A stretch of 64,000 bases of DNA from NCBI RefSeq assembly GCF_003334305.1, contig NZ_QOWS01000010.1. One strand, given 5' to 3'. Position numbers and translations under genes: made by a program. Below, in pieces: positions 1 to 46,059 of this stretch; the first letter of the stretch is position 1; each line of letters begins with the position of its first letter. The notes below the pieces were generated by a model, which saw only the letters and a program-made list of their open reading frames with translations, was not told where the DNA came from and made no database searches. The stretch is from Escherichia coli. Lineage in GTDB: Bacteria; Pseudomonadota; Gammaproteobacteria; Enterobacterales; Enterobacteriaceae.

Positions 1-2972
1 AACACCAGGCGGTGCTGGCTGTCGTAGTGGTAGTGGTGGGTCCGCTCGTCGTCCGTCCGTATCACACCCGTCGGGATACGGTCCGTCTTCTCCGTCAGTC
101 TGCCGTATTCATCATAGTGGTAAACATAGTGCGCATCCTCTGCGATGCGGTTATCCGGCCACACTGTGAGTGTACTGTCCGGGTGCAGCTCCGGGTCCGG
201 CAGCCGGTTGCCCGCCGGGTCCGTGGCATACGGGATGCGGATGTCCAGGTCTGGTGCGAGGGTGCGCACACTCTCCAGCCTGCCCGTGGCGCTGTAGCCG
301 TATTCCCGCGTCTGTCGCGGGCCGCTGATGCGCACCAGGTCGCCGTTGTCACTCCACCCGTAGTCACGGTCATATACCAGGCTGTTCAGGTGCTGGCTCT
401 GTAACTGGCCTGCGGGGGTGTATGTGCTGGTCAGTTCGTATGCGGCATTACTGCCTGCCATGCTGCCGAAGCTGCGCACCGTCTCACGGTGCAGCCTGTC
501 CCGCGTATACTCGACCAGCGGCGTCCCGCCCAGCTTCATGCCCGCCAGGTAACCGCTGCCGTAGGTCAGCCACTCCACCGGCGGCAGGCTGTCCGGCGTG
601 ACGCGGTTTGCCAGCCCCTGTTCGTTGTAGGCGTGTTTCGTCTCATGCTGCCACAGCAGTTCCCCCGTCTCCGGGTTCTCCACCGTCTGCCGTTCGCCCG
701 TCAGGCGGCCCTTATCGTCGTAGCCGTAGTGGACAGCGACACGGTGGCCTTCGCTCAGGTGGCTGATTTCTCTCAGCCAGCCGTGGCCGTCATACTGCCA
801 CTGCTCTGCCGGGTCGCCGTTCACCGTCCGGTGCGTGATGCGGTCCGACGCATCGTAGTGCCAGAGGGTGACAAGCCCCTCATCTTCACTCTGCGTGAGT
901 TTTCCGGTCAGGTCATAATGATAACGTTGCGTCCGCCCGTCAAAGCCGCCCTGCTGTACCAACCGGTCCAGCGCATCGTAGCTGAAGTCGCTGTGACTGC
1001 CGTTCTCGTTAGTCAGACTGATGACACGTCCGGCAGCATCGTATTCCATGCTGCGCGTCAGCCCGCCCTGCGTGGTGCTGACCGCCTTTCCCCACGCATC
1101 GTACTGTGTCTCGCTCCGGTTGCCGTCCGGGGTGATAACGGCAGTCAGGTCGCCTGCGGCGTTGTACTCATACTGCGTTTCACGGCCCTGTGCGTCTTTC
1201 ACCGAGGTTAACCGGCCACGGTTGTCATAGTGGCGGTAAAGGCTGATACCTTCCTCGCGGTGAACCGCCGTCATCTGGCCGAAGCGGTCGTATTCATAGC
1301 GGGTCTGGTAGCCCGAGCAGTCAGTGAACGCCAGCAACTGCCCGTAGCGGCTCCACGTCATCTGCCGGGTGCTGCCCGTCGCATCCGTTGTCGTCGCCGG
1401 TAACTCACTGTGCGCGTCATCGTAGCGGTAGCGTACTGTCTCCCCGCTGCGCGATGTCTCCGATACCAGCCTGCCCGGTTCATCATATTCCCGGCGGCTC
1501 TCCAGCCCGTCCGGGTACACCACCGCCGTCAGCTGGTTCCCGTCGTTATAGTAAAATTTCGTCTCCCGCCCGTCCGGTGTGGTGATGTCCGTGATATCGC
1601 CGGACACCACATTCAGACCGTACTCTGTCCGCCGTCCCGCCGCGTCCGTCTGCGCCGTGAGCCTTCCTGCCGCGTCATACCCGCTGTGCGTGACGCTGCC
1701 GTCCGCCAGTTCTTTTTTCACCACCCGCTTCAGCCCGGCCCCGCCTTCTGTATGCAGCACCTCACGCCGGTTCAGGCTGTCGGTGACGGTGATGCGGTCC
1801 TGCTCATACTGGTAGCGGTAACTCAGGCCTGCCGGGTTAAGTTGCTCCACCACCCGCCCCGCATCGTCGTAGCGGTAGCGCATCTCCGGCCTGCCTGCAT
1901 AACGGTGCCCCACCATCCGGCCCCGGTATTTATCATCGTAAGTAAAGTGGCGCATCTGCGTACCGCTGCGGTCATACACCGCCGCCAGCTCACCGCGTGG
2001 CGTCCAGTCGTAGCACACCAGTGGCGCGGCAGGTAAATTTTCCGGGTATTCCGGGTCGTGCATCAGCCACACCGCCGAAAGACGGATACCGCTGTCAGCG
2101 CCGTATTCCGTACCGGGCAGTGTGTCGGGGAAGGAAGGAGCTGAGAGAGGGCGGGGACTGTCAGGGGAAGATAACGAAGCGGTGTGCGGTTTACGGGCCT
2201 CTTCCGCCCGCTGTGCCTGTGTGGTCAGTACCAGACGGAACTCCCGCCCGGCACCGTCCGTCACGCCGGTGATTTCCCCGGCCAGGTCACCGGCGGCCTC
2301 ACGCCGGTACGCCAGCGTCCGTCCGAAGCGGTCCGCCATCCCGGTAAGCACCCGGTACGGCGGCAGCGGCGCTGGCAGTAAGTCCTCAGCACCCGGCACC
2401 CGCTCAGACCACCCCAGTATCCACCACGGCCCCTGTGCGCTGTTGGTCGCCAGGTAAAGATGCGGGCTTAACCGGATATCCGGCGGCAGCGCCCCCCACA
2501 GCCGCGCCAGCGTATGGCCGTCCGGCTGTGCTGCCTTACCACCGCGCACCAGCCACATTGACTCACTGCGGCTGTACACCGCCTCCCCCGGCAGCAGCGG
2601 CTCAAAGTGAATGCTCCGCCCGCCGTTGTCGTTGAGTACCAGTGCATCATCGCGTATCTGTAAGCGGATATCAGAAGGCGCTTTCCAGCCGGGGCCAAAA
2701 ATTCCCACCGGCGCAGGCGTCTTCGTCCGGTAGCTGCTGTAGGTGCGGGAGAGAATGAACAGCAGCGGGTCGGGCAGCGCAAGGTCCGTCTCGCCGGGCT
2801 GTACTTTTGCACCGAGCAGCGGGTTCACCGGGTTGCCCGAGGTCATCCCGCCCGGACACACCGAGCACGCCACGCCAGTTGGCGCGCCAATTCTTACACC
2901 TGCCGAACCCTGGACAATGGGACCGCCATACTGAGTCATATCTCCCTGACGCGCCGCTGGTTTTCCGCTCAT
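1..2972 (-). CDS. rhsD: Rhs-family polymorphic toxin core protein, N-terminal ~990 codons (partial; continues beyond window start)
   Basis: Reverse-strand translation from ATG (complement of 2970-2972) reads [57 protein letters not shown]..., the conserved Rhs N-terminus; frame stays open to position 1. Absent from ORF track because no stop codon lies in the window. Symbol inferred from K-12 synteny (downstream of ybbP). Confidence 0.9.
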
Positions 2973-3361
2973 ATAAAGTGCCCTTTTAGTTATTGTTCAT
3001 ATCCCTGTGTTAGCAACAAAAAAAATAAAATGACACACAAGACCAGCTAATGTATTTATATATTTTTCACATAAACTTATTTGTTCTCAATCAACAACAA
3101 CTGTTATTACAGGTCACTTTCAATATTTTATTAAACTAAAATTTTTAGCACAGATGAATTCATCATCAACAAATTCACTATATGGATAATATCCATTCAA
3201 CGCATATGATTTATGATTTTATTAGTCTGAGTTATTTTTGTAGGGCTATATTTAAAATTATTAAACTCCACCGATTCAGATTAATATCGCAATAGAAAGA
3301 TAGGAAATCACCAATTCAATAACATCATCAATGAAACATATTGTAGAATTAATTTAAACAA

Positions 3362-3385
3362 GGCGTTCCATTCAACCAGAACGCC
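3362..3385 (-). terminator. Probable intrinsic terminator downstream of ybbP
   Basis: Inverted repeat ggcgttc...gaacgcc immediately 3' of the ybbP stop, followed on the reverse strand by a T-rich stretch. Confidence 0.5.
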
Positions 3386-3400
3386 CCTTATTTACTCTCA

Positions 3401-5815
3401 TCACCCCGCAAACTGCCTGAACAGCGCCTTACCCTTAACCAGTCTCGCGCCCAGCCAGCCGCCGAAAAGCGACAGCAGCAGCGCACCGCTGCACGGCAGA
3501 ACAATCCACAATCGCCAGTCTGGCTCCCACGGGAAATCAAACACTTTCGCCTGCAACACTGCCAGCGCCGTTTCCGCACCAATTGCGGCTACCAGGCCAG
3601 AAACAAACCCAAGCATGGCGAACTCGCACCACAATGTCGTACGCAGCAGTTTTTTCCCCGCACCGAGTGTGCGCCACACCACCAGCTCCTGATGACGCTG
3701 ACGCATTCCCACCTGCACCTGTGCCAGCAACAGCAACATACCGCAGGCGGTGACCAGCACCACCATCACCTCCAGCGCCCGACTTACCTGCTCCAGCACC
3801 TGACCGACCTGTTTTAAAATCGCGCCAATGTCTAACAGGCTAATGGTAGGGAACTGGCGGTTGAGTTGTGTCAACATGCCGTTGCCATTCTCCCAGCGGA
3901 AACTGGTAAGCCAGCTCTGCGGTTGCCCGTCTAATGCCCCTTCAGGGAAAATAAAATAGAAATTAGGCCGCAGACTTTCCCAGTCCACTTTGCGCAGGCT
4001 GGTCACTTTAGCGCGGAACTCCTGGGTATCGCCCATAAAAGTCACGGTATCACCGAGGGCAACGTTTAAGCGTTTCGCCAGCCCCTCTTCCATCGACACT
4101 TCATCGGCTTTTGGCGGCCAGTTACCGGCGACAATCGGATTATGATCGGGTCGCGTATTTTGCCAGGTAAGATTGAGTTCGCGGTTAAGCGCCTCATCTT
4201 CATTACCTTCTGTCGGCTTATCGTTAATCGCCGTCAGCCGCGCCCGCACTACCGGATAAAATGATTCCGGGACTATCTGATGTTCCGCGAGGAACGCTTT
4301 TAGCGGTTCTACCTGTTCTGTGGCAATGTTAATTAAAAAGTAGTTCGGGCTTTCTGGAGGTAGCTGCTGCTGCCAGCGGTCAAGCAGATCGCCACGCAAT
4401 ACCAGCAACAGCGCCAGCAGCATAAAGGAGAGCGAAAATGCCGAAAGCTGGCTTAATGTTGACCACGGCTGACGTAACAGGCGGCTAACCGCCAGGCGCA
4501 GAGGTAGCGATTTCAGCGTCATGCGGCGAAGTACATTCAGCATCATCCAGCCCAGCACACCGCACAGCAAAGCCAGTACTACCGCGCCCGCCAGCACCGC
4601 CCAAAGCAGCATGCTGCCACCCATTAATCCGGCGAGCAGCAGCACAACCACCACACTGACAATCGGCAGATAAAACTTCAGCGGCCAGACGTTCGCGACC
4701 ACATCATTACGTAATACGCGTAAAGGCTGCGTTGCCAGCAACAAGCGGTACGGTCGTAGCCCCACCAGCAGCGAGATAACCGTCATGGTGCCCAGCGCCC
4801 ATAGCCACGGCCAGAGGCTGGCTGGCGGTAGTGCAGCAGGCAGAACGGGCTTGAGCAGCACCATCAACACGTTTTCGAACAACAGGCCTATCGCCCCACC
4901 GGTAACGGCTGAAAGCGCCAGCACCAGCAACCACTGACCGACGATTAGCTTACGCAGTTGCGCTCGCCCTGCCCCCAGCGTTTTGAGGATCGCCACCAGA
5001 TCGTAGCGACTGCGACAGTAATGATTCATCGCTACCGCCACTGCTGCCACTGCCAGCAGCAAGGTCAGAAGCGCCGAAAGCAGCAGGAACTGTTGCGAGC
5101 GTTCCATCGATCGCCCCAGCGCGCCTTCGTCCTGTTCCAGACCGTACCAGCGTTGTTCGGGTTTAAGCTGGGGTAACAACCATTTCTCATAGCCGTCGAG
5201 CTGGTTCTCGTTGCCGCCGAATTTATAACGCCAGGTGACCCGACTCCCCGGCTGCACGGCTCCGGTTTTATCGACATCCGCCAGATTCATCATCAGACGC
5301 GGAGCCATCTGGAAGGGGTTAAAACCGGAATCCGGTTCCTGAATCACTTCTCCGGCAATCCGCAAGGTGGCATCGCCCACGTCAATGGTGTCGCCCGTTT
5401 TCAGGTTAAGCAGCGCCATCAGGCGTGGGGCCAGCAATACGCTGCCCGCCTGCGGTTTCAGGCCAGGGGGATTAGTTTGCAGATCGCCATACATCGGGTA
5501 GATATCATCCACCGCTTTGACGTTCGCCAGCTGCGGTGTGTCGCCTGCAAATGTCATGGTGGCGAAAGTCAGCTGCTTGCCGACTTTCAGGCCGCGCTTT
5601 TGCGCTTCCTCCAGCCATGCTTGCGGCACTTCGCGCGAACTGCGCAACGCCCGATCGCCCGCCATAAACTCCCGGCTTTGTTGGCTTAAGCCCTTCTCCA
5701 TGCGATCGCTGATATTGCCCAGCGCCAGCACGCAGGCCACCGCCAGGCTTAGCGCCAGCCAGACAATTAATAGCGACGGCGAACGCCATTCGCGCCAGAA
5801 CCAACGTGCAATCAT
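3401..5815 (-). CDS. ybbP: ABC transporter permease, FtsX-like (LolE/MacB-type), 804 aa
   Basis: ORF track 3401..5815 (-), 804 aa, multi-TM; 4-nt overlap with the upstream ATPase gene ybbA. Confidence 0.95.
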   Translation of the reverse strand: MIARWFWREWRSPSLLIVWLALSLAVACVLALGNISDRMEKGLSQQSREFMAGDRALRSSREVPQAWLEEAQKRGLKVGKQLTFATMTFAGDTPQLANVKAVDDIYPMYGDLQTNPPGLKPQAGSVLLAPRLMALLNLKTGDTIDVGDATLRIAGEVIQEPDSGFNPFQMAPRLMMNLADVDKTGAVQPGSRVTWRYKFGGNENQLDGYEKWLLPQLKPEQRWYGLEQDEGALGRSMERSQQFLLLSALLTLLLAVAAVAVAMNHYCRSRYDLVAILKTLGAGRAQLRKLIVGQWLLVLALSAVTGGAIGLLFENVLMVLLKPVLPAALPPASLWPWLWALGTMTVISLLVGLRPYRLLLATQPLRVLRNDVVANVWPLKFYLPIVSVVVVLLLAGLMGGSMLLWAVLAGAVVLALLCGVLGWMMLNVLRRMTLKSLPLRLAVSRLLRQPWSTLSQLSAFSLSFMLLALLLVLRGDLLDRWQQQLPPESPNYFLINIATEQVEPLKAFLAEHQIVPESFYPVVRARLTAINDKPTEGNEDEALNRELNLTWQNTRPDHNPIVAGNWPPKADEVSMEEGLAKRLNVALGDTVTFMGDTQEFRAKVTSLRKVDWESLRPNFYFIFPEGALDGQPQSWLTSFRWENGNGMLTQLNRQFPTISLLDIGAILKQVGQVLEQVSRALEVMVVLVTACGMLLLLAQVQVGMRQRHQELVVWRTLGAGKKLLRTTLWCEFAMLGFVSGLVAAIGAETALAVLQAKVFDFPWEPDWRLWIVLPCSGALLLSLFGGWLGARLVKGKALFRQFAG

Positions 5816-6498
5816 GCTTCCTCCTGCAACTGCCCGTTCACCAGCCGTAAGCAGCGGTCGCAGCGTGCCGCCAGTTGCAGGTCGTGGGTCACCATAATCA
5901 ACGTGGTGCCATGTTCACGGTTGAGGGAAAACAGCAGGTCGGCAATTTTATCGCCCGTCTGGCGGTCAAGGTTGCCGGTGGGTTCGTCGGCAAACAGCAC
6001 ATCAGGTCGACCATTAAAGGCTCGTGCCAGCGCCACTCGTTGCTGTTCACCGCCGGAAAGCTGTGCCGGAAGATGATCCAGACGTTTACCCAGCCCTAAC
6101 TGTTCGAGCAACGCTTTCGCCCCGTTACGACTTTCCGCGCTACTCTCACCGCGCAGCAGAGCCGGAAGCTCGACGTTTTCCAGCGCGTTAAGGGTAGGAA
6201 TTAACATAAATGACTGAAAAACAAAGCCGACGTGCTTCGCGCGCAACTTTGCCCGCGCTTCTTCGTCCATATTATGTAGCGGTTGTCCCACCAGACTCAC
6301 TTCGCCACTGCTGCCGTCATCAAGCCCGGCGAGGATCGCCAGCAAGGTTGACTTACCCGATCCCGACTCGCCCACCAGTGCGATGGTCTCGCCACGTTTG
6401 ACAACCAGCTCAACTCCGGTGAGGATGGAGAGTTCATGCTCCCCCTGACCGACGGACTTCTTAAGATGATGAACTTCAACAATGTTTTCCGCTGGCAT
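5812..6498 (-). CDS. ybbA: ABC transporter ATP-binding protein, 228 aa
   Basis: ORF track; Walker A GESGSGKST, ABC signature LSGGEQQR, Walker B LFADEPTGNLD. Confidence 0.95.
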   Translation of the reverse strand: MPAENIVEVHHLKKSVGQGEHELSILTGVELVVKRGETIALVGESGSGKSTLLAILAGLDDGSSGEVSLVGQPLHNMDEEARAKLRAKHVGFVFQSFMLIPTLNALENVELPALLRGESSAESRNGAKALLEQLGLGKRLDHLPAQLSGGEQQRVALARAFNGRPDVLFADEPTGNLDRQTGDKIADLLFSLNREHGTTLIMVTHDLQLAARCDRCLRLVNGQLQEEA

Positions 6499-7092
6499 TT
6501 GCCCTTCCTGTTCCTGGTCCTGTTAACCTTCCGTGCCGCCGCAGCGGACACGTTATTGATTCTGGGTGATAGCCTGAGCGCCGGGTATCGAATGTCTGCC
6601 AGCGCGGCCTGGCCTGCCTTGTTGAATGATAAGTGGCAGAGTAAAACGTCGGTAGTTAATGCCAGCATCAGCGGCGACACCTCGCAACAAGGACTGGCAC
6701 GCCTTCCGGCTCTGCTGAAACAGCATCAGCCGCGTTGGGTGCTGGTTGAACTGGGCGGCAATGACGGTTTGCGTGGTTTTCAGCCACAGCAAACCGAGCA
6801 AACGCTGCGCCAGATTTTGCAGGATGTCAAAGCCGCCAACGCTGAACCATTGTTAATGCAAATACGTCTGCCTGCAAACTATGGTCGCCGTTATAATGAA
6901 GCCTTTAGCGCCATTTACCCCAAACTCGCCAAAGAGTTTGATGTTCCGCTGCTGCCCTTTTTTATGGAAGAGGTCTACCTCAAGCCACAATGGATGCAGG
7001 ATGACGGTATTCATCCCAACCGCGACGCCCAGCCGTTTATTGCCGACTGGATGGCGAAGCAGTTGCAGCCTTTAGTAAATCATGACTCATAA
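6466..7092 (+). CDS. tesA: Acyl-CoA thioesterase I / protease I / lysophospholipase L1 (SGNH hydrolase), 208 aa
   Basis: Track ORF 6436..7092; start placed at MMNFNNVFRW (ATG 6466); signal peptide then GDSLSAG motif. Confidence 0.93.
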   Translation: MMNFNNVFRWHLPFLFLVLLTFRAAAADTLLILGDSLSAGYRMSASAAWPALLNDKWQSKTSVVNASISGDTSQQGLARLPALLKQHQPRWVLVELGGNDGLRGFQPQQTEQTLRQILQDVKAANAEPLLMQIRLPANYGRRYNEAFSAIYPKLAKEFDVPLLPFFMEEVYLKPQWMQDDGIHPNRDAQPFIADWMAKQLQPLVNHDS

Positions 7093-7891
7093 AGCAACGG
7101 AGATCCTGACAGGTAAAGTTATGCAAAAATCGGTCTTAATTACCGGATGTTCCAGTGGAATTGGCCTGGAAAGCGCGCTCGAATTAAAACGCCAGGGTTT
7201 TCATGTGCTGGCAGGTTGCCGAAAACCGGATGATGTTGAGCGTATGAACAACATGGGATTTACCGGCGTGTTGATCGATCTGGATTCACCAGAAAGTGTT
7301 GATCGCGCAGCAGACGAGGTGATCGCCCTGACCGATAATTGTCTGTATGGGATCTTTAACAATGCCGGATTCGGCATGTATGGCCCCCTTTCCACCATCA
7401 GCCGTGCGCAGATGGAACAGCAGTTTTCCGCCAACTTTTTCGGCGCACACCAGCTCACCATGCGCCTGTTACCCGCGATGTTACCGCACGGTGAAGGGCG
7501 TATTGTGATGACATCATCGGTGATGGGATTAATCTCCACGCCGGGTCGTGGCGCTTACGCGGCCAGTAAATATGCGCTGGAGGCGTGGTCAGACGCACTG
7601 CGCATGGAGCTGCGCCACAGCGGAATTAAAGTCAGCCTGATCGAACCCGGTCCCATTCGTACTCGCTTCACCGACAACGTCAACCAGACGCAAAGTGATA
7701 AACCAGTCGAAAATCCCGGCATCGCCGCCCGCTTTACGTTGGGACCGGAAGCGGTGGTGGACAAAGTACGCCATGCTTTTATTAGCGAGAAGCCGAAGAT
7801 GCGCTATCCGGTAACGCTGGTGACCTGGGCAGTAATGGTGCTCAAGCGCCTGCTGCCGGGGCGCGTGATGGACAAAATATTGCAGGGGTGA
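7082..7891 (+). CDS. ybbO: Short-chain dehydrogenase/reductase family oxidoreductase, 269 aa
   Basis: ORF track; Rossmann motif TGCSSGIG, catalytic YAASK; start overlaps tesA stop by 11 nt (alternative start at internal ATG ~7121 possible). Confidence 0.9.
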   Translation: MTHKATEILTGKVMQKSVLITGCSSGIGLESALELKRQGFHVLAGCRKPDDVERMNNMGFTGVLIDLDSPESVDRAADEVIALTDNCLYGIFNNAGFGMYGPLSTISRAQMEQQFSANFFGAHQLTMRLLPAMLPHGEGRIVMTSSVMGLISTPGRGAYAASKYALEAWSDALRMELRHSGIKVSLIEPGPIRTRFTDNVNQTQSDKPVENPGIAARFTLGPEAVVDKVRHAFISEKPKMRYPVTLVTWAVMVLKRLLPGRVMDKILQG

Positions 7892-7909
7892 GTTGAAGCG
7901 CGCGCTTAA

Positions 7910-8806
<897 letters not shown>

Positions 8807-44725: not shown

Positions 44726-44742
44726 TACAACGTGTAATCACT

Positions 44743-44768
44743 AAGGCCGCGCAAGCGGCCTTTTTTAT
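44743..44768 (+). terminator. Intrinsic terminator of acrAB
   Basis: aaggccgc-gcaa-gcggcctt hairpin followed by TTTTTTAT, 18 nt after the acrB stop. Confidence 0.85.
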
Positions 44769-45270
44769 GCATAACCTACGAACATTAAGGAGTAATTGAA
44801 CCACCAACTCAGGATCTCATACGAAAACCAGTATTAACCACGGATAAAATTCATAAAAAATACTGATTGTTAGTTAATTTATATTAAGTAGCGCTAATAG
44901 ATTTAATAATCCATAATCATTTAGAGGCTATTCTTAATTATTTGCGGTAATTCTTTATTCATTCCTCGGTTATTACGTCATATTCAGAGCAATCCTGGTA
45001 TTAGTGTCACCAATTTCATCTGGCGATAATCCTGAAATGTTATGAACAGTTCGAGCAGACTGCTTTTACCTGCTGCGGGTTAGTGCTAGTATGAAAAAGT
45101 GAGTCCTGTCCCGATTCCTTCCTAATTGTAATTTTTCGTAATAATGCGATGAAAACCTGCAAAGAGTGGCTTATAGTTAAGCTAACAAACGAGAGGGCAA
45201 GTCCAGGTCAGTAAGTTTTTTCCATCCCGAAAGGTGTCCGTTAGTTCAACCGCTAAGAAGGGGACGCGTT

Positions 45271-45645
45271 ATGGATGAATACTCACCCAAAAGACATGAT
45301 ATCGCACAGCTTAAGTTTCTCTGTGAAACCCTGTATCATGACTGCCTTGCAAACCTTGAAGAAAGCAATCATGGCTGGGTTAACGACCCAACCTCGGCGA
45401 TCAACCTCCAGTTGAATGAACTGATTGAGCATATTGCGACCTTCGCACTTAATTACAAAATTAAGTATAATGAAGACAATAAGCTCATTGAGCAGATCGA
45501 CGAATATCTGGATGACACCTTTATGTTGTTCAGTAGTTATGGTATTAATATGCAGGATCTTCAGAAATGGCGGAAGTCAGGTAATCGACTATTCCGTTGT
45601 TTTGTCAATGCGACGAAAGAGAATCCTGCGAGTTTATCTTGTTAG
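45271..45645 (+). CDS. tomB: Hha toxicity modulator TomB (YbaJ), 124 aa
   Basis: ORF track; SD aagaagggga; recognised TomB sequence. Confidence 0.93.
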
Positions 45646-45670
45646 AATTATTACAACCATGGGTAGAAGT

Positions 45671-45889
45671 ATGTCCGAAAAACCTTTAACGAAAACCGAT
45701 TATTTAATGCGTTTACGTCGTTGCCAGACAATTGACACGCTGGAGCGTGTTATCGAGAAAAATAAATACGAATTATCAGATAATGAACTGGCGGTATTTT
45801 ACTCAGCCGCAGATCACCGCCTCGCCGAATTGACCATGAATAAACTATACGACAAGATCCCTTCCTCAGTATGGAAATTTATTCGCTAA
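45671..45889 (+). CDS. hha: Hha (haemolysin expression modulator; H-NS co-regulator), 72 aa
   Basis: Inside track ORF 45425..45889; start at [27 protein letters not shown] (ATG 45671), 25 nt after the tomB stop. Confidence 0.93.
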
Positions 45890-46059
45890 TAAATAATTCG
45901 CTTTCGGAGCTATAACCGGCTGTTTATTAAGAATTTTATACTTTTCACCATGAAGACATACCCTATGTGATCTTTATCACACAGATGTAATGGGAACGTT
46001 CTCTTCACTGACTTTTCGTCTTACTGTGTTGCCGCATTTTCAGCAACCGGAGGTCAGTA

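Follow-up and report, generated by a model that had tools for sequence, protein, structure and literature searches.

The left edge of the window, by which is meant the whole 64,000-nucleotide stretch of Escherichia coli DNA that was analysed, is entered by a gene with the features of an Rhs protein preceded by a markedly AT-rich region, and the locus thus raises the question of which element these two segments belong to, where it begins on the chromosome, and what has become of the toxin that such a gene would be expected to carry. The best explanation, and one considered highly probable, is that the window opens on the left end of an RhsD element in which the effector has likely decayed while its immunity gene has been retained. 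The RhsD element, the juxtaposition of a G+C-rich core and AT-rich flanks, tip displacement, and binding of H-NS to the ybbP/rhsD spacer have all been published, and the reading matters little beyond annotation.

The Rhs core gene

Translation of the reverse strand from position 2972 to position 1 yielded 990 stop-free codons, in agreement with the initial annotation, which had placed some 990 Rhs codons on this strand from an ATG at 2972. Of the three registers translated, those starting at 2974 and 2973 contained many stops, leaving that from 2972 as the only open one. The start codon (2972-2970) lies 8 nt downstream of a Shine-Dalgarno-like AAGGG read directly from the reverse strand (2981-2985). 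As had also been proposed, the gene is missing from the list of open reading frames because its frame runs on beyond the left edge of the window, and it is GC-rich: positions 1-2972 have a G+C content of 63.7%, the highest of all 2972-bp stretches in a window averaging 52.8%.

Searches with the 990 residues encoded within the window returned 2124.7 bits for NCBIfam NF041261 (RHS_core) over model positions 1-990 of 1261, this model being an equivalog ('RHS element core protein') with a curated whole-protein cut-off of 2000 bits. The same residues include YD repeats (TIGR01643, E = 1e-50, seven stretches; Pfam RHS_repeat, nine matches at E ≤ 0.001), preceded by DUF6531 (aa 46-123) and an N-terminal PAAR-like motif. 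Amino-acid identity to K-12 RhsD was 95% over the 990 residues, the K-12 gene occupying the same site downstream of ybbA-ybbP, and the corresponding gene of E. coli strain A7 is annotated 'RHS element core protein'. Neither outcome named beforehand as counting against the assignment (a stop in this frame, no alignment to Rhs proteins) occurred, and the gene is the Rhs-core ortholog of K-12 rhsD.

The orthology is interrupted by a divergent mosaic patch of 441 bp (positions 1780-2220, reverse strand, approximately codons 250-400), which a difference profile together with blastn of patch and flanks showed to be 82% identical to K-12 rhsD, as against approximately 98-99% for the sequence on either side. 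The patch was matched at 99% or better in just 293 genomes, while in 3523 the best match was 80-90%; two paralogs from A7 compared as possible donors were each only 75% identical, and the donor was not found. Antisense open reading frames within the core (up to 240 aa) gave no family match above noise and were set aside as the usual artefact of DNA with 76% GC3.

The AT-rich spacer and the left boundary of the element

Immediately upstream of the rhs gene, with nothing in between, lies ybbP (804 aa; 3401-5815, reverse strand), a flanking core-genome gene identified from the open reading frame list and the A7 and K-12 annotations and found in 5418 of 5426 complete genomes. The annotation tables of both strains give the order ybbA-ybbP-rhs...ylbG-mnmH, and the position is that of locus 3 in the published set of conserved rhs loci of E. 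coli (Jackson et al. 2009; PMC2935791). Alignment of four site variants showed that homology with Rhs-less genomes is lost 2-3 nt past the ybbP stop codon (TGA, 3403-3401), and megablast matches with such genomes ended at 3391-3398, so that the junction between core genome and RhsD element lies at 3396-3400. The AT-rich spacer is therefore part of the accessory element, and this sequence, bound by H-NS in K-12 (see below), came with it; consistent with that placement, the spacer was absent from approximately 2534 genomes that possess ybbP. Window positions 1-3398 are the left end of the E. coli RhsD element, situated between ybbA-ybbP and selU/mnmH.

Other strains have alternative T6SS cargo at the ybbP/selU site. 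Strain AL.H8 was considered as a possible empty site and rejected, since its configuration reflects an IS1-associated deletion rather than the ancestral state.

The composition of the spacer was as initially described, strongly AT-rich and devoid of open reading frames of 60 aa or more: the G+C content of 2973-3400 is 28.0%, the minimum of all 428-bp stretches in the window (the next lowest being 34.1%), and the longest open reading frame wholly inside it has 37 aa, two others, of 60 and 64 aa, extending only into its margins from rhs and ybbP. Composition, genome survey and literature together define 2973-3398 as the single-copy, non-coding left end of the element. It was present in 2907 of the 5426 complete E. 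coli genomes (~54%), at 95% identity or better in all but one and without an annotated feature, and is approximately 98.8% identical to its K-12 ortholog.

A sigma-70 promoter is predicted on the reverse strand at 3106-3134 (TTAATA-17-TGTAAT; -35 at 3134-3129, -10 at 3111-3106). The string has one exact match in the window and none in 100 shuffles, and the same hexamers are given, with an H-NS mark, for the K-12 ybbP>rhsD spacer, which contains a SELEX-derived RNA polymerase sigma-70 site that overlaps a site for H-NS (PMC3946193). From the transcription start expected for such a promoter, some 7 nt downstream of TGTAAT and thus near position 3099, a leader of approximately 125 nt would be produced. 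The spacer's K-12 ortholog also appears as promoter island 522099_304 (ybbP/rhsD), with H-NS bound in every ChIP-chip data set and an association with foreign genes (Panyukov and Ozoline 2013, Table 1; PMC3661553); the spacer described here would belong to the same class by orthology only. A generic promoter consensus scan returned promoter-like sites no more numerous than in shuffles and hence lent the promoter-island assignment no independent support, and the single two-mismatch site for the high-affinity H-NS motif TCGATAAATT is neither an enrichment nor informative. The suggestion in the initial annotation of an H-NS-silenced Rhs promoter accordingly draws on binding reported for the K-12 ortholog (PMC3661553, PMC3946193), and silencing of the spacer here is a prediction transferred from K-12 through the ~98.8% identity. 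By analogy with the family, H-NS polymerising on the AT-rich spacer would normally hold transcription low. In the best explanation the left end of the element consists of a promoter and leader region, AT-rich and horizontally acquired, ahead of the G+C-rich Rhs core gene.

It might be supposed that the 428-bp stretch conceals an independent feature, for instance an sRNA, a small protein or a type I toxin, given that it is well conserved yet unannotated and that in strain LD39-1 the alternative DNA filling this site includes a dinQ-like type I toxin. However, spacer conservation does not exceed that of the flanking genes and thus does not by itself indicate constraint, Rfam returned no match at E ≤ 1 over positions 1-8000, the 37-aa internal frame has the look of random AT-rich sequence, the presumed 5' leader folded no better than shuffles (z = 0.16), and repeats within the spacer were confined to chance-level matches of 10-14 nt, with no terminal inverted or direct repeats that would mark an insertion. 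A hidden feature of this kind is accordingly regarded as extremely improbable. A terminator-like hairpin with a T-tract (3360-3387, reverse strand; consensus scan, 11-pair stem) lies just past ybbP within the variable segment, and other occupants of the site have different hairpins at that same position.

The core/tip junction, toxin tip and presumed immunity gene

Alignment of the window with strain A7 (assembly GCF_022493755.1) gave no mismatch over 64,000 bases, and the part of the element to the left of the window could therefore be read in that genome. The core there ends in PLQGRYITQDPIGLEGG, with the PxxxxDPxGL motif that closes Rhs cores present beyond the window. Approximately 750 bp past the window edge, a run of six G residues (G6) is replaced by seven (G7), as a result of which the A7 core frame stops 19 codons after DPIGLEGG and the toxin tip is out of frame, rather than being fused to the core as it is in the G6 version found in other strains. 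The gene is flagged 'frameshifted' by PGAP in both A7 and E2865, the allele of this genome being annotated as a pseudogene, whereas the G6 allele of 2014C-3599 is annotated as an intact protein of 1396 aa.

As predicted by the initial annotation, the toxin tip and immunity gene lie beyond position 1, and extension past PxxxxDPxGL by way of A7 revealed a ylbH-type tip followed by an open reading frame of the YbbD family. The tip is of the K-12 ylbH/O157 RhsD type, being identical to the orphan ylbH tip of K-12; a likeness to the tip of K-12 RhsD itself was considered and rejected, the C-terminus of that protein having no similarity. Its frame runs uninterrupted for 151 aa from a GTG start and overlaps the final part of the core frame. 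An NCBIfam search with the tip gave zero matches, and its homologs form a narrow family restricted to E. coli, Hafnia and Rahnella. A weak Pfam SAA match (E = 4e-4) agrees with the serum-amyloid-A-like model reported for the tip of the EDL933 protein z0651 (PMC7216683), while an AlphaFold2 model built from a 10-sequence alignment had a pLDDT of 51.5. PADLOC defence models returned no match for core, tip or immunity protein. Downstream of the tip is an intact 163-aa open reading frame that scored 379.6 bits with NF011298 (cut-off 326) and is annotated 'YbbD family protein'; from its position it is presumed to be the immunity gene. The A7 annotation lacks ybbC.

Whether the extra G is real bears directly on the state of the effector. 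If it were an assembly or homopolymer error, the gene would be an intact, working T6SS Rhs effector, a proposition consistent with a one-base difference within a G run (the type of site at which long-read assemblies err), with the intact G6 form of closely related alleles, and with the complete T6SS, including VgrG, that A7 carries approximately 300 kb from the locus. However, the exact 87-mer spanning the G7 junction occurs in at least 411 independently assembled complete genomes, which identifies it as an inherited allele rather than an error. It is moreover tightly linked to a synonymous C/T variant 19 nt away: exact junction counts among complete genomes were 411 for G7 with C and 2126 for G6 with T, as against 4-6 for G6 with C and 6-7 for G7 with T, an association that random homopolymer errors would not produce. 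A working effector obscured by such an error is thus judged very unlikely.

Slightly less remote, though still improbable, is that the frameshifted G7 allele is functional in some other way, either because the tip and YbbD may be produced independently from internal signals and act within the cell as a pair analogous to a toxin and antitoxin, the arrangement reported for Salmonella Rhs-CT, or because occasional slippage of the G-tract may restore the full effector. G7 would in that event represent a maintained split arrangement, and slippage would re-arm the T6SS effector in a subpopulation. Consistent with this, the tip frame is open and overlaps the core frame's final part, the gene for the presumed immunity protein is intact, the rare G6+C and G7+T genomes indicate that tract length changes occasionally, and Rhs-CT/RhsI expression in Salmonella is driven by internal promoters that precede the region coding for PxxxxDPxGL (PMC7043789). 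On the other hand, near-complete linkage of G7 to one haplotype argues against frequent switching, and neither a promoter nor a ribosome-binding site has been demonstrated for the tip frame. The G7 alleles of A7 and E2865 are mutually identical and therefore provide no power to test for purifying selection. Different lesions at the locus in other strains, namely an internal stop in A31 and an IS1 insertion or deletion in 98192 and AL.H8, fit a pattern of general decay.

The state of the locus in this genome is most likely that of a decayed effector, comprising a toxin-less Rhs shell gene of 1256 aa with its immunity gene kept. The frameshift is both common and inherited, and the strains in which it cuts the toxin off from the core form a sizeable group that includes O26, O103 and O111 STEC; Rhs toxin repertoires inferred from genomes should consequently allow for it. 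All coordinates given in the initial annotation were exact; the junction frameshift, the presence of a ylbH-type tip rather than that of K-12 RhsD, and the accessory nature of the AT-rich spacer were three things that could not be seen from the window by itself.

Delivery and comparison with related Rhs systems

On the strength of family knowledge, the YD repeats of an intact allele would fold so as to enclose the C-terminal toxin in a shell, self-cleavage would occur at the DPxGL motif, and the T6SS would deliver the protein, mounted on a VgrG spike, into neighbouring bacteria, while YbbD would guard the producer cell. Attachment to VgrG is assumed: the literal motif PAARQGD is present in the N-terminal translation, but the Pfam PAAR_motif match is weak (E = 0.22, residues 3-20, covering just the final 18 of the model's 70 positions). 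Neither vgrG nor an Eag-type (DUF1795) chaperone gene was found linked to the locus in the A7 annotation or the open reading frame list. Structure matches of the YD-repeat shell region had E values from 1e-114 to 1e-34, the closest solved relatives being Tse5 of P. aeruginosa (8cp6, E = 1.4e-114) and RhsA of P. protegens (7q97, E = 7e-80), while for the first ~290 residues sequence comparison gave no homolog of known structure. With these two proteins and Tre23 (7pq5) the gene shares the shell region and the DPxGL self-cleavage motif closing the core, but it differs from them in lacking both a clear, complete PAAR domain and a linked gene for VgrG or a chaperone.

Comparison with the K-12 RhsD element (rhsD b0497, ybbC, ylbH, ybbD) showed a common site and predicted promoter and closely similar core and spacer. 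However, whereas K-12 has its own RhsD tip together with ybbC, and beyond these an orphan ylbH tip and a ybbD that is broken, the A7 core leads straight into the ylbH-type tip through a frameshifted junction, with an intact ybbD and neither ybbC nor the K-12 tip. The RhsD proteins of EHEC O157:H7 EDL933 (z0651) and 2014C-3599 (the 1396-aa allele) likewise have a full-length core joined straight to this same tip and followed by a YbbD-family gene, but both are G6 and in frame, unlike the G7 pseudogene described here; O157:H7 genomes match the tip-immunity segment at 98.9%. The rhs main/orphan locus of Salmonella Typhimurium SPI-6 similarly has a main gene accompanied by orphan tips that have been displaced, is silenced by H-NS, and exchanges its tips through recombination between core repeats (PMC7043789, PMC2935791), but lies within a T6SS island, whereas the RhsD locus is unlinked to a T6SS.

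Identity of the locus and its Rhs core gene

Alignment of the 64,000-base window with NZ_CP028767.1 (1214493-1278492, reverse complement) returned zero mismatches, and over window 1-3400 the match to E. coli A7, a strain from orangutan faeces, reaches 100% identity; given this identity, the continuation past the left edge was read in A7. By gene order (ybbA-ybbP-rhs on one side, ylbG-mnmH(selU)-allS on the other), this is the RhsD locus of K-12, which Jackson et al. 2009 (PMC2935791) list as locus 3 among the rhs loci conserved in E. coli. What the window holds is the left end of an already known, textbook element: an acquired AT-rich promoter/leader region, then the Rhs core gene.

Translation of the minus strand from position 2972 gave 990 stop-free codons, the two adjacent registers being full of stops, and a Shine-Dalgarno-like AAGGG lies 8 nt upstream of the ATG (2972-2970, minus strand). 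The initial annotation, which proved correct on every testable point and had placed some 990 N-terminal Rhs codons behind an ATG at 2972, was therefore exact in its coordinates, and correct in stating that the ORF track misses the frame because it runs off the window before its stop. Its assignment to the Rhs (YD-repeat) proteins was likewise upheld: the NCBIfam equivalog NF041261 "RHS element core protein" scored 2124.7 bits for the 990 residues (cut-off 2000 bits; model positions 1-990 of 1261), with no in-frame stop inside the window and seven YD-repeat stretches. Pfam placed DUF6531 at residues 46-123 and nine RHS_repeat matches at E <= 0.001, together with a marginal PAAR_motif match at the N-terminus (E = 0.22, residues 3-20). 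Comparison with K-12 RhsD, encoded at the same locus, gave 95% amino acid identity across the whole 990 residues, and the nearest solved structures were the T6SS Rhs effectors Tse5 (8cp6, E = 1.4e-114) and RhsA (7q97, E = 7e-80).

The G+C content of window 1-2972 (63.7%) is the highest of all window stretches of that length, the window mean being 52.8%. The core also contains antisense ORFs reaching 240 aa; none matched a family, and they were rejected as genes because such frames are to be expected at 76% GC3. Within the core, a 441-bp patch (window 1780-2220) shares 82% identity with K-12 rhsD, as against about 98-99% in its flanks, and is found at 95% identity or more in only about 7% of genomes; no donor was found, the two A7 paralogs compared showing 75% identity.

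The AT-rich spacer and the boundary of the element

The spacer at 2973-3400 has a G+C content of 28.0%, the minimum among all 428-bp stretches in the window, and its longest ORF is 37 aa, so that the earlier description of a GC-rich gene beside an AT-rich 428-bp region lacking ORFs of at least 60 aa holds. As a single-copy sequence it occurs in 2907 of 5426 genomes, at 95% identity or more in all but one, and carries no annotated feature in any of the 2907. Rfam returned no match to it and folding indicated that the presumed leader of the rhs transcript is not structured; that the spacer hides a small gene or RNA is unsupported and scarcely credible.

Alignment of four site variants (this window, K-12, GN04204 and LD39-1) demonstrated that identity stops 2-3 nt past the ybbP TGA; the whole spacer, including a terminator-like hairpin located by consensus scan at 3387-3360 (minus strand), therefore belongs to the accessory element. 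All ybbP/selU site variants part ways at this same distance from the stop codon, and in about 2534 genomes ybbP is present with homology lost at window 3391-3398. The ybbP/selU(mnmH) intergenic site (window 3396-3400; L004 4839-8841 and L005 8295-9006 in other strains) is a hotspot whose cargo varies by strain. In one alternative, three DUF2931 genes accompany an Hcp-fusion protein of 667 aa, annotated as TssD (Hcp) but of a size that implies an extension at the C-terminus; in another, the site holds a short segment bearing a dinQ-like type I toxin together with a REP-like hairpin.

The K-12 ortholog of the spacer has been described as a 304-bp "promoter island", foreign-gene-associated and H-NS-bound in all ChIP-chip data sets (PMC3661553), which by our own conversion of coordinates spans roughly window 3055-3356. 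In the same ortholog an RNA polymerase sigma-70 SELEX site overlaps an H-NS site, with a predicted promoter TTAATA-17-TGTAAT (PMC3946193); an exact copy of this 29-mer stands at 3134-3106 (minus strand), the only one in the window, and 0 of 100 shuffles contain it. An H-NS consensus motif search and a generic promoter scan gave no independent support. H-NS probably holds rhs transcription low. The second- and third-lowest G+C values (34-38%) fall at window 44726-45947, in the acrB-tomB spacer and the tomB-hha operon, the former likewise marked as an H-NS site (PMC3946193).

A toxin tip cut off by a frameshift

In this genome the toxin is cut off by a stable frameshift and the presumed immunity gene is kept. 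The A7 core ends in PLQGRYITQDPIGLEGG, the PxxxxDPxGL boundary, and its frame meets a stop 19 codons later, for a total of 1256 aa; the toxin tip (…NGIDPLGLSPADVALIRRK…AGYLK) is a 151-aa ORF in a different frame, followed by a 163-aa ORF coding for a YbbD-family protein (NF011298, 379.6 bits; cut-off 326 bits). Leftward extension thus located the boundary, a frameshifted tip and a small YbbD-family ORF in succession, the tip and immunity gene lying beyond position 1 as anticipated.

PGAP labels the A7 gene as frameshifted. Junction alignment against intact alleles (2014C-3599, annotated intact at 1396 aa; A31; the K-12 orphan ylbH) established that the tip is out of frame because the G run numbers seven in A7 and E2865 rather than six; in A7 it occupies L001 8247-8253, which lies 747-753 nt to the left of the window's first position. 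A census of exact 86/87-nt junction sequences across 5426 complete genomes found the seven-G run with a synonymous C variant 19 nt away in 411 genomes and the six-G run with T in 2126, mixed types being rare (six G with C, 4-6; seven G with T, 6-7). By this linkage the frameshift is an inherited haplotype, neither an assembly error nor a fast-switching tract. That the extra G is an assembly error in an intact effector gene is contradicted by these counts and highly improbable; a split or switchable arrangement of core and tip is also improbable. Carriers of the inherited haplotype include O26, O103 and O111 STEC, and other strains have other lesions at the locus: A31 has an internal stop, and 98192 and AL.H8 show an IS1 insertion or deletion.

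The A7 tip matches that of the K-12 orphan ylbH exactly and bears no relation to the tip of K-12 RhsD. In K-12-type strains the ylbH-type tip is a displaced orphan behind rhsD-ybbC, whereas A7, O157:H7 and others have it attached directly to a full-length core; this is the pattern of C-terminal displacement and recombination known for rhs loci (PMC2935791). The ybbD gene is intact in A7 but broken in K-12, a reciprocal decay (L001 7288-7779 versus K-12 L002 9141-9631) in which K-12 retains the tip in frame. The tip matched nothing in NCBIfam or PADLOC and Pfam serum-amyloid-A weakly (E = 4e-4), a likeness similar to that reported in silico for the EDL933 RhsD tip (PMC7216683). Its homologs came from E. 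coli, Hafnia and Rahnella only, and its AlphaFold2 model (pLDDT 51.5) was too poor for use.

Delivery

In an intact allele the YD-repeat shell would enclose the tip, with cleavage at DPxGL and firing by the T6SS; YbbD probably guards against the tip, and the kept immunity gene would still shield the cell from neighbours with an intact toxin. The A7 annotation links no vgrG or chaperone gene to the RhsD locus, and places a complete T6SS (tssA-M, two Hcp genes, a VgrG and an intact Rhs) at the aspV island; an intact RhsD would presumably use this system. Across L011 1-9412 and L012 13524-41272 of A7, about 300 kb from the window, the T6SS is succeeded by the intact vgrG-linked Rhs, by a further Rhs that is frameshifted and accompanied by a ydcD-type gene, and by three ISAs1 copies in decay. 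Elsewhere in the window, the interval between ybaT and cueR contains a short pseudogene fragment (12235-12332) whose A7 annotation reads 'hypothetical protein, frameshifted, missing N-terminus'; at this position GN04204 has a longer frameshifted ORF.
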